Position numbers and translations under genes: made by a program. Positions 3 to 34,331 of a DNA stretch of 38,014 nucleotides are shown piece after piece. The notes under the pieces are model-generated. The model did no database searches, had not been told where the DNA came from, and saw only the letters and a list, made by a program, of their open reading frames with translations. Each line of letters opens with the position of its first letter. Position 1 is the stretch's first letter. This DNA comes from Candidatus Huberarchaeum crystalense (GTDB taxonomy: Archaea > Huberarchaeota > Huberarchaeia > Huberarchaeales > Huberarchaeaceae): NCBI GenBank assembly GCA_002790315.1, contig PFUW01000003.1, forward strand, positions 1 to 38,014, read 5' to 3'.

Positions 3-146
3 GAGAAAATAAAAATAAACGAAATTTTTTATGAATTTGCTGGAAAAAAAGAAAAAATAAAATACATAAATCCTAACTCAAAGATATTGCCAAAAGAAAT
101 AAAACAAAAGAAATATGTTCATTTAATCAACTTTTCTCCTTTCTAA
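3..146 (+). CDS. 3' end of a CDS entering the window (unknown product)
   Basis: Open frame EKIKINEIFYEFAGKKEK...HLINFSPF ending in TAA at 144-146. Confidence 0.5.
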   Translation, partial: EKIKINEIFYEFAGKKEKIKYINPNSKILPKEIKQKKYVHLINFSPF

Positions 147-249
147 CTAATTAAATAAACTTTTGGCTTATTGTGGTTACACCATTCGTAAACTGCAGTA
201 ACTTCCATATTATAAGAAAAACATCGTTATATTTTTTCTCCGTCCCCCT

Positions 250-10873: not shown

Positions 10874-11488
10874 TTAAAACAAAAAAGCTATATATGTCTT
10901 AATNNNNNNNNNNNNGCAGTATAGCATCTTATACACAGAAAAGGGGCTATAAAAAGGTGATGCTAAAATATGTTCTCTTTGATTTTCTGTATACCTACCA
11001 ACCATTTCAAAAAAATTACCAATATCAAAAGATTTTTTATTAAAAATAATAGTATTTCCTTCTTTTTCAATATGTTGAGCATATTTAAAATATTTCAAAG
11101 AAAGATCTTTCCTATTTATATTTAAAAATAAATAAAATATTTTTTTATCTTGCATCTTACAAAGATCAATATATGTAAACAATTGATTTAGGTTGATAAT
11201 GTATTGCTTATCCTTGCTATTTTTAACTTCTATCTCAATTCTTCCTGATTTGTTGTTTTCTTGTTCAATACTAAAATCAGCATTAAATACATCTATATTA
11301 TAAGTGTCTTCTTTTTTTTTGCTTAAATAAGATTCTACAACTTTTGAAACAACAATATCCCAAAAAGAAACAAAATTAACTTTACGTCCGTCTGTTTTTG
11401 TAAGAACAAAATTAGTCATATCCTGACTATTCCCATTAGTTTTAGATATTTCATAAATATTTTCTTTACTAAAACAATTATAAATCAT
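10874..11488 (-). CDS. Hypothetical protein, possible PD-(D/E)xK nuclease fold (3' end uncertain, N-gap)
   Basis: VVESYL...ADF...IEVKNS...NQLFTY resembles the E / D / ExK / QxxxY arrangement. Confidence 0.5.
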   Translation of the reverse strand: MIYNCFSKENIYEISKTNGNSQDMTNFVLTKTDGRKVNFVSFWDIVVSKVVESYLSKKKEDTYNIDVFNADFSIEQENNKSGRIEIEVKNSKDKQYIINLNQLFTYIDLCKMQDKKIFYLFLNINRKDLSLKYFKYAQHIEKEGNTIIFNKKSFDIGNFFEMVGRYTENQREHILASPFYSPFSVYKMLYCXXXXIKTYIAFLF

Positions 11489-11510
11489 ATATTTTTGTCG
11501 GGTTTGTTTG

Positions 11511-11774
11511 GGGCGCGCATTAGCCTGCCTTATACTTTCTTCTTGGTTAAAACCAACAGAAGCAGAAACATTTATCTACAGCCAAAGCTGTGTTAGCGAT
11601 ATTATATCTTGCATTCAAGAGGCAAAGAAATTTCATCCAAAATGTGCGCGCTCAATTAATATCACAGCTTGCGCAAATCAGGTATTTTCTGTTTCTTTGC
11701 GAGACATTACATCTACACACTATACGAATGGGCAGAACTTGGTTCACTTTGCAGCGAAAGTTTCTTACGCACCC
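11511..11774 (-). ncRNA. rnpB: RNase P RNA (short, divergent)
   Basis: Minus strand folds as P1 GGGTGCGTA/TGCGCGCCC, P2 AGAAAC/GTTTCT, P3 TTCGC/GTGAA, P4 AGT(T)CTGCC/GGCAGGCT, P5 CATTC/GAATG and P10-11 GCAAAGA/TCTTTGC. CR-II ACAGAAA, CR-III GATGAAA, TGCAAG and AGATAAATG occur in the correct order. Confidence 0.88.
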
Positions 11775-11815
11775 TATTGTTTTTATAATAGAGCAAAAAC
11801 CTTTACAAAAAAAGT

Positions 11816-12349
11816 ATGGACAACAAAACAAAACCAAAACCAAACATTGTAGATGACGAAATAAAAACAATGACTCTTCCTATAAGAGTTAAAGAGAGAC
11901 CGCGGAGAGACCGCGCTAATGCAGCAATAAACATAATAAAAAAACAAATAAGCAAAAATCTTGGTAGTGTCGTCGAAATTTCCAAAATAGTTGTTGGCGA
12001 GTCAATAAATAAAGCTGTTTTTGCAAGGGGGCGCGAAAGACCACCACACTCTTTAAAAATTTCTGCTAAAAAAACCAAAGGTATATATTATACTGAGCTC
12101 GAAGGAGTTGAGATTAAGCAAAAAATAATTGAAAAAAAGACATTGGGAGGAAAAAAGCCGCATGAAAAGGGGTTTGCAGGAATGTTGGAGCAGATGAAGA
12201 AAAAAGCAGGAATTGAAGAAAAGAAAAGCGAAGAAAGCGAAAAGACAAAACAAGAAGTGACACCTGCTGCTGAAACAAAAGTAGAAACACTGCGAGAATT
12301 AAAGGAAAAAGAAAGCGAAAAAGTTGATAAAGAAATTATGAAGAAATAA
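11816..12349 (+). CDS. rpl31e: 50S ribosomal protein L31e with long charged C-terminal extension
   Basis: PRRDRANAAINIIKKQI...ESINKAVFARGRERPPHSLKI matches the L31e pattern. Confidence 0.85.
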   Translation: MDNKTKPKPNIVDDEIKTMTLPIRVKERPRRDRANAAINIIKKQISKNLGSVVEISKIVVGESINKAVFARGRERPPHSLKISAKKTKGIYYTELEGVEIKQKIIEKKTLGGKKPHEKGFAGMLEQMKKKAGIEEKKSEESEKTKQEVTPAAETKVETLRELKEKESEKVDKEIMKK

Positions 12350-15140: not shown

Positions 15141-15212
15141 CCCTTCCTAGCTCAACGGTAGAGCGCTTGGCTGTAGACCGAGATGTTCCCGGTTCAAATC
15201 TGGGGGAAGGGA
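15141..15212 (+). tRNA. tRNA-Tyr, anticodon GTA (intronless)
   Basis: C1-G72 acceptor CCCTTCC/GGAAGGG with A73; anticodon arm CTTGG-CTGTAGA-CCGAG; short variable loop (archaeal/eukaryal type). Confidence 0.95.
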
Positions 15213-15245
15213 CTATCTAATATATAGTGTTCTTTGCTCACTCTA

Positions 15246-33741: not shown

Positions 33742-34284
33742 TTACACTATAACTGTTTCTAAATATGGTTCTTTGTTAGAGCTAACTTCTTGAAGCCAAT
33801 TAATAACTGCTCTGTGCTTTGAGCCATTTATAATCTGCTCAATTGTGTTTTTGGCAAGACCTGTGTTTTTTGCAGATCCAATAATATATGCTTTACTGGT
33901 GTTAATTAGCAAAGCAACATCACACAACACCTCAATTTTTTTTCGTATTTTTCCTTGCTTGCCAATAATTCTGCCAGCAATAACTTTTTGACGGTTTTTG
34001 TTTTTGTGTTTAAAAGATATTTGTGTTAAAAAAACATCTAGCTCTTTAAGTTTAATTGCATTATTGGGTGTAAATCCTATAGAGATTGCAGAAAGTATAT
34101 TTACTGCTGTTTCTATGTTTAATATGTCTTTGCCACTTATTTTTGCGATTCCTTTATTTATCTCTATAACTGTATGTGTTATTTTTTCAATTTTTGCTTT
34201 TGTTTCTCCCTTGTTTCCTATTATTGTTGCTGCGCGCTTTTCATCAAATACAATAATTTCTTCATATAATTTTTCATTAACCAT
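33742..34284 (-). CDS. KH-domain rRNA-processing protein (Dim2/Pno1/Krr1 family)
   Basis: IIGNKGETK and GRIIGKQGKIR GxxG loops; AISIGFTP; IINGSKH. Confidence 0.88.
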   Translation of the reverse strand: MVNEKLYEEIIVFDEKRAATIIGNKGETKAKIEKITHTVIEINKGIAKISGKDILNIETAVNILSAISIGFTPNNAIKLKELDVFLTQISFKHKNKNRQKVIAGRIIGKQGKIRKKIEVLCDVALLINTSKAYIIGSAKNTGLAKNTIEQIINGSKHRAVINWLQEVSSNKEPYLETVIV

Positions 34285-34331
34285 AATTTTGTTATTTGTT
34301 TTTGTATTTGTTGCAGCACCATAAAAATATT

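Follow-up and report, generated by a model that had tools for sequence, protein, structure and literature searches.

According to the passages of two reports that define them (PMC4919922, PMC1874661), the archaeal ribonuclease P (RNase P) RNAs of type M, found in Methanococcales and Archaeoglobus, have no P8, P16, P17 or P6 and no L15 loop, and their P10/11 is unbroken. L7Ae binds the kink-turn (K-turn) in P12 of these RNAs, as stated in the relevant part of PMC4919922. We analyzed a stretch of 38,014 nucleotides (nt) from Candidatus Huberarchaeum crystalense (assembly GCA_002790315.1, contig PFUW01000003.1, positions 1 to 38,014; hereafter the window), and the segment 11511-11774 on its minus strand is, with high confidence, the sole gene for RNase P RNA (rnpB/RPR) in this ultra-small, DPANN-like groundwater archaeon. 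The RNA likewise lacks all of the elements that are missing from type M and has an unbroken P10/11; its P12 carries a K-turn-like motif, a gene for L7Ae is present in the genome, and, as in type M, the RNA would depend on four or five proteins. It differs from type M by two added hairpins, one between P15 and conserved region IV (CR-IV) and the other in J2/4, by the altered J3/4 and CR-V and by a J2/3 of a single nucleotide. In our own reading of those defining passages, type M carries no further helix from P15 to P2 or from P2 to P4, and the locus departs from it at both places. As far as these definitions go, the architecture of the RNA is type-M-like with two added hairpins. The locus belongs to this known archaeal kind, and what is new in it is the set of changes in J3/4 and CR-V, which is unique in our sample.

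A second described case comes from Candidate Phyla Radiation (CPR) bacteria, whose diverged RNase P RNAs score below model thresholds and need manual refolding, as the relevant part of Lui, Nielsen and Arkin 2021 (PMC8172020) reports. To the extent covered there, these RNAs resemble the locus in coming from ultra-small organisms known from metagenomes and in falling under model cut-offs; they are bacterial and work with a bacterial protein, whereas the locus RNA is archaeal. A literature search that covered main texts and few subscription journals returned no description of DPANN RNase P RNA structures.

Identity of the locus

We scanned window positions 11350-11950 (601 nt) against all 4227 Rfam families at E-values up to 10. 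The archaeal RNase P model RF00373 (RNaseP_arch) aligned end to end, over model positions 1-288, with 11774 to 11511 on the minus strand (28.1 bits, E 3e-6), exactly where an earlier reading made from the sequence alone (the sequence-only reading) had placed an unannotated RNase P RNA. Rescaled by arithmetic to one family over the 453-kb genome, the E-value is about 5e-7. The model and the locus have the same order of helices and conserved regions, and the alignment leaves the P8 columns empty and has an insertion of 24 nt behind the 3' strand of P2. The gathering score of RF00373 is 84 bits, which is an operational cut-off and not a biological feature. Because the locus scores far below it, the RNA is absent from a standard Rfam listing: a scan of the whole window at gathering thresholds gave four tRNAs only, with RNase P RNA unlisted, and a first-pass RF00373 search of the whole genome overlooked the locus, as had been anticipated for standard models. 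A covariance model built from the 264-nt RNA alone (R1) found one locus in its own genome, at 344 bits, indicating a single copy in the assembly. Two open reading frames that overlap the RNA (114 aa on the plus strand and 72 aa on the minus strand) had no Pfam match, which agrees, as far as tested, with the view that they are spurious. The sole match that RF00373 gave in the search of the whole genome was a weak partial one at window 34232-34316 on the minus strand (10.1 bits, E 0.23, model positions 98-180), probably by chance.

All the helices that had been named earlier formed standard pairs (Table 1). The conserved modules found in the RNA are the bulged U38, ACAGAAA, GAUGAAA, GCAAG and AGAUAAAUG, the final G of which (window 11569) doubles as the first base of the P2 3' strand. 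CR-II, CR-III and CR-IV match the consensus, and CR-I and CR-V are in place, each deviating at three near-invariant positions. The P5-P9 spacing of just 11 nt leaves no room for P8, and the RNA has no L15 internal loop, no P16/P17 arm and no P6, so that the reported absence of P8 and P16/P17 held. The P15 hairpin consists of 11 nt and aligns with the sole P15 hairpin of four comparator RNAs (L119-L122). In the distal part of P12, RNA 107-125 presumably fits the K-turn consensus. The description of the RNA as minimal was an overstatement, for among the comparators described below there are archaeal RNAs of 191-240 nt that pass the Rfam threshold, such as L119 (191 nt, 90 bits) and L120 (210 nt).

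Table 1. Features of the RNase P RNA gene and its 5' flank (RNA position 1 is window position 11774; C-domain, catalytic domain; S-domain, specificity domain)
Feature	RNA positions	Window positions	Strand	Description
RNase P RNA gene		11511..11774	-	264 nt
P1	1-9 / 256-264	11766..11774 / 11511-11519	-	9 bp
P2	10-15 / 206-211	11760..11765 / 11564-11569	-	6 bp
P3 hairpin	17-32	11743..11758	-	6 bp, GCAA loop
J3/4 (CCA) and P4 5' strand (CR-I)		11731..11742	-	AGUUCUGCC, with bulged U38
P4	36-37, 39-44 / 246-253	3' strand 11522-11529	-	8 bp, U38 bulged
P5	45-49 / 159-163	11726..11730 / 11612-11616	-	5 bp
P9 hairpin	61-73	11702..11714	-	
S-domain core		11622..11700	-	P10/11 enclosing CR-II, P12 and CR-III
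P10/11	75-83 / 145-153		-	9 bp, uninterrupted
CR-II	83-90		-	ACAGAAAA, in place in the RF00373 alignment
P12	93-138		-	within the S-domain core
K-turn-like motif, distal P12	107-125	11650..11668	-	GC, UGU bulge, GA...GA, GC; predicted from sequence
CR-III	138-144		-	GAUGAAA, in place in the RF00373 alignment
J5/15 (GCAAG) and P15 stub	167-177 (P15 stub)	11598..11611	-	4 bp, UAA loop
Extra hairpin, P18 site	184-197	11578..11591	-	ACAGC-UUUG-GCUGU, 5 pairs
CR-IV / J15(18)/2		11569..11577	-	AGAUAAAUG, Rfam consensus match with high posterior probability
P19-site hairpin in J2/4	213-236	11539..11562	-	4 bp, UG bulge, 5 bp, UUUA loop
J19/4 = CR-V		11530..11538	-	AAAGUAUAA, contains GUAUAA
Upstream box		11775..11787	-	TATAAAAACAATA, abuts the RNA 5' end; near-match to AAAAA-N(1-3)-TTA[AT]

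The collection that we searched contains no other genome of this phylum. A BLAST-type search with the 264 nt against 40 other archaeal genomes gave short chance matches only, and R1 had no match in the 150 other genomes. Of 151 genomes searched with RF00373, 139 had a match at E up to 0.001, above the gathering score in 120 and below it only in 19, all of them small. The sub-threshold loci number 20 (29.6-83.7 bits), one being a second locus beside an above-threshold match; in the 11 matchless genomes, RF00373 at relaxed E gave nothing convincing (best 17.7 bits). These data provide a concrete case in which the gene of an essential ribozyme is dropped by standard annotation thresholds in ultra-small archaea, and such genomes may then seem to lack RNase P RNA. 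We chose 90 comparators, comprising the 30 best-scoring RNAs, 20 picked among the lowest (29.6-95.2 bits) and 40 intermediate ones. When R1 was run with filters off on 60 of them, it matched at full length at E up to 0.001 in 23 (8 of the 20 lowest and 15 of the 40 intermediate).

Covariation was analyzed in an alignment of the locus with the eight RNAs that R1 had matched among the 20 lowest; they score 40.5-95.2 bits with Rfam, four of them above 84. In the alignment, which was fitted to the model and in which the 3' end of one row (L116) is misplaced, 92.4% of cells were paired versus 39-49% with slid partners, and double changes occurred at 59 of 70 pairs; none of 500 shuffles reached these values. 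P1, P2, P3, P5, P10/11 and P12 all covaried: double changes were found in eight of the nine pairs of P1, in all six of P2 and in all nine of P10/11, and P5 had 100% of its cells paired and compensatory changes in four of five pairs. Because the alignment was fitted to the model, these values lean towards the structure. P4 is the cleaner test, since it was left out of the model: 93.1% of its cells were paired versus 25-44% when slid, four of its eight pairs were compensatory, and 0 of 500 shuffles reached the covariation score. P4, P2 and P5, which the sequence-only reading had singled out for such a check in relatives, were supported in this comparison with other small archaeal RNase P RNAs.

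Genes for the protein partners were found in the same genome: Pop5 (PF01900, 48.3 bits), Rpp30 (PF01876, 29.6 bits, E 9.7e-8, under the Pfam cut-off of 35), Rpp29 (PF01868, 45.1 bits), Rpp21 (PF04032, 32.0 bits) and L7Ae (PF01248, 85.2 bits). A search of the assembly, which is 77.85% complete, for HARP (PF08745) gave no match. According to the relevant part of PMC6380272, HARP was absent from all DPANN genomes examined there, a survey that did not extend to the RNA.

The thermodynamic signal of the RNA is modest: compared with shuffled sequences, its minimum free energy (MFE) fold has a z of only -2.23, and 4 of 200 shuffles fold equally well. The case is carried by the E-value of the covariance model together with the comparative data. 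A chance match, or a structured RNA of another kind, could also have a modest z and a score under the gathering threshold, but we give this explanation practically no weight, given a full-length glocal match at E 3e-6, five conserved regions in the right order and spacing, compensatory changes of P4 in an alignment not fitted to P4, and the presence of the protein partners. RNase MRP was also considered and dropped; it is not known as an archaeal RNA.

DNA of the locus is present in many groundwater and aquifer metagenome runs. Parts of a 701-nt query were found in five metatranscriptome runs, four of which were aligned to the window; these data are Logan contigs and not reads, and come from four runs that represent at most three samples in three studies. 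The contigs measure 255, 247, 184 and 167 nt, have 0 differences from the window and span 11511-11765, 11515-11761, 11514-11697 and 11525-11691, all within the predicted RNA. Such contigs carry no strand. Their ends at 11511, 11514, 11515 and 11525 fall close together beside the predicted 3' end, which hints weakly at a discrete transcript. No contig covered the flanks 11300-11510 and 11766-12000, and this was not used as evidence. An independent metagenome contig of 45 kb (L124) has the same sequence at the locus without a difference, so the unusual positions are not assembly errors.

Altered flanks of P4

J3/4 and the start of P4 read GAACCAAG in the locus. The results showed that CR-I contains AGGAA in 86 of 90 comparators versus ACCAA in the locus, a change of GGA to ACC in J3/4; the four exceptions are two fetched stretches without a recognizable CR-I and two one-letter variants. 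CR-V begins with AC in 89 of 90 comparators, the lone exception being mis-anchored, versus GU in the locus, and the full ACAGAA is found in 68 of 90 versus GUAUAA, a change of ACAG to GUAU. The alteration of the P4 flanks, first noticed in the sequence-only reading, is real, and these changes in J3/4 and CR-V are the sole feature unique to the locus among the 91 RNAs. The two stretches without CR-I (L103 from G066 and L107 from G020) belong to one family, in which Rfam matches range from 29.6 to 74.4 bits and two members have no match; a large insertion may separate these stretches from their real 5' portions further upstream, or else the RNAs may have undergone rearrangement.

Several observations weigh against a working RNase P RNA at this locus. 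The near-invariant positions that changed lie beside the active-site helix and could, in principle, impair catalysis. P7 has at best three pairs around a U-U mismatch, and Rfam marks the P7 pairs as non-standard. The RF00373 score is 56 bits under the gathering threshold, and the contigs from RNA libraries alone are no proof of transcription. In addition, the genome is incomplete, so a second RNase P RNA gene could lie in the missing part. The first, third and last of these points would fit a decaying or inactive copy, with a working gene in the unassembled part of about 22% or the activity supplied otherwise. We consider this very improbable, because P4, the bulged U, CR-II, CR-III, CR-IV and all core helices are intact, the independent contig carries the identical sequence, the RNA is found in the libraries of three studies, and all four of the specific protein subunits persist in a genome that measures some half a megabase and in which no HARP was found. 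Moreover, other small archaeal genomes, 19 of the 151 searched, likewise gave RF00373 matches under the gathering score only.

The changes offer natural mutations for asking which nucleotides of these joints a protein-rich archaeal enzyme needs. It is conceivable, but on balance rather doubtful, that the RNA represents a distinct archaeal RNase P RNA subtype of a deep lineage known from a single genome, with a type-M-like S-domain, hairpins at the P18 and P19 sites and a rewired surround of the active site. On this subtype reading, the altered J3/4 and J19/4 might be compensated by proteins or by new RNA-RNA contacts.

Hairpins at the P18 and P19 sites

The sequence-only reading had described the hairpin immediately ahead of AGAUAAAUG as a bacterial-like P18. 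We found the hairpin there, after a linker GCUAAC. In the four simplest comparators (L119-L122), GCU directly follows P15 and CR-IV comes next, which fixes the position of the hairpin in the locus. The P18 of bacterial RNase P RNA has a GNRA loop that docks into P8. In bacterial type A RNAs, P18 is the last helix of the C-domain and follows P15-P17, as described in the relevant part of PMC4919922, and to that extent the hairpin of the locus is its positional equal; it differs in its UUUG loop and in the lack of a P8 receptor. Hairpins at the same site, one or two in number, occur in at least 4 of the 90 comparators (L110, L115, L116 and L162; counted by eye on MFE folds). Since the loop is UUUG, P8 is missing and other archaeal RNAs carry same-site hairpins, an independent, lineage-specific insertion is the simpler reading. 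The position of the claimed P18 stood, and homology with bacterial P18 was dropped, the likeness being positional only.

The other hairpin lies in J2/4. In human RNase P RNA, P19 precedes J19/4 and the 3' strand of P4, and Pop1 contacts P19, as stated in the relevant part of PMC13022451. Compared on that basis, the hairpin is at the same position as P19 of eukaryal nuclear and bacterial type B RNAs, a likeness with nothing pointing to common descent. Pop1 is a eukaryal protein. Among the 71 comparators resolved by automatic motif anchors and MFE folds, 27 have a hairpin at the P19 site, where a hairpin was predicted in a stretch of at least 20 nt from the 3' strand of P2 to CR-V; 19 of the 90 were not resolved by the anchors, and several of these, for example L061 and L114, show one by eye. 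The 27 carriers include L046, L050 and L053, whose Rfam scores reach about 200 bits or higher. Within our sample, then, a hairpin at the P19 site is a common feature of archaeal RNAs. The same literature search of main texts and few subscription journals found neither the commonness of archaeal P19-site hairpins nor the recurrence of P18-site hairpins described, and our survey suggests that in small archaeal RNase P RNAs the former are common and the latter recurrent. Several P19-site hairpins (for example those of L132, L134 and L152) are alike in build, with an outer stem, CAUCG and an inner hairpin.

The best R1 match, top of the 60 loci scored, was L110 (G008:C34; 57.5 bits, and 62 bits with Rfam). 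It shares with the locus the GCAA loop of P3, a GUAAU loop in P9 and a P15 stub followed by GCUA, and its P18 site holds a 38-nt insert of two hairpins. Its P19-site hairpin has the same build as that of the locus (4 bp, a 2-nt bulge, 5 bp and a tetraloop), and, read by eye, both sides differ between the two at six of nine pairs. Unlike the locus, it has AGGAA in CR-I and AC in CR-V. The contig of L110 measures 5.6 kb and carries a 23S rRNA gene interrupted by a group I intron; L110 follows 99 nt downstream on the same strand. Between this 23S and the one of the locus genome, identity is patchy and amounts to no more than 68-75%, so L110 is no close relative, and the likeness is one of architecture and not of close kinship. 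The bin of L110 holds a second RNase P RNA (129.5 bits, contig C23), and among 13 genomes of its class an L110-like RNA was found in one, the bin itself, suggesting that the contig is probably mis-binned. On the contig (L130, G008:C34:1-5559), the group I intron is at 1723-2009, and two tRNAs follow L110.

A diverged relative of the locus was sought with pattern scans. In genome contigs the scan gave 37 stretches; three are archaeal, and none of these is an RNase P RNA by Rfam. The 34 bacterial ones were judged to be chance matches from their titles only. In metagenome contigs it gave four stretches, the near-identical strain of L124 and three chance matches, with no diverged relative. Because of this, the two extra hairpins have no covariation in their own lineage, which leaves room for a working RNase P RNA in which one or both of them are not as drawn.

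Two other pairings can be written. AACCAAG occurs twice in the locus, at RNA 31-37 (J3/4 to P4; window 11738-11744) and at 227-233 (3' strand of the P19-site hairpin), and UUGGUU (RNA 219-224, which lies with 227-233 in window 11541-11556) is complementary to AACCAA of J3/4 (31-36) as well, so that both pairings are possible. GUGU (RNA 55-58) and ACAC (182-185) could form a 4-bp, P6-like pseudoknot, which would shorten the P18-site hairpin and is used by the unconstrained MFE fold. We regard such an alternative as unlikely. By arithmetic, chance alone would give some two repeated 7-mers in an RNA of 264 nt, complementarity over four bases is weak as evidence, L110 has a P19-site hairpin of the same build with two-sided changes, and the site is occupied by a hairpin in over a third of the resolved comparators. 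The two peripheral hairpins as drawn are most likely lineage-specific insertions, with a presumed stabilizing role. On the doubtful subtype reading, and judging from complementarity, the UUGGUU strand of P19 might be a candidate for a new contact with AACCAA of J3/4.

Proposed working and the upstream flank

On the basis of established RNase P biology, the RNA would be the catalytic subunit of an archaeal-type ribonucleoprotein that cuts 5' leaders off pre-tRNAs. Its C-domain would consist of P1-P5 and the P15 stub, with the P4 pseudoknot and the bulged U as the metal-binding core. Its S-domain, made up of P9, the unbroken P10/11 and P12, would read the tRNA elbow through CR-II and CR-III. Pop5-Rpp30 would probably sit on the C-domain and Rpp21-Rpp29 on the S-domain, and L7Ae may bind the K-turn-like motif in P12. 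The RNA lacks the L15 loop that would bind a 3' CCA, and this agrees with the tRNA genes: an encoded CCA follows none of the 38 read in the genome (tails read by eye).

The 5' end of the RNA gene abuts a near-match to an A-rich box. In 11 of the 38 tRNA genes, for example the one at window 15141-15213 on the plus strand, a motif AAAAA-N(1-3)-TTA[AT] ends within -2 to +1 of the predicted 5' end, against 0.086 expected from the genome-wide rate; in five others its end is 15-24 nt upstream. The box was rejected as a general promoter, as it has no fixed distance to starts of open reading frames. Possible roles are that of a pre-tRNA leader that is conserved or, for stable RNAs, that of a promoter-proximal element. 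On the subtype reading, the changes in J3/4 and J19/4 might be matched to this box at the 5' edges of tRNA genes.

A divergent gene at 11816-12349 on the plus strand, 42 nt from the 5' end of the RNA, encodes a protein of 177 aa. The protein has a weak match to L31e (21.5 bits; cut-off 25); the Pfam profile of L31e, with 82 positions, is about half as long.

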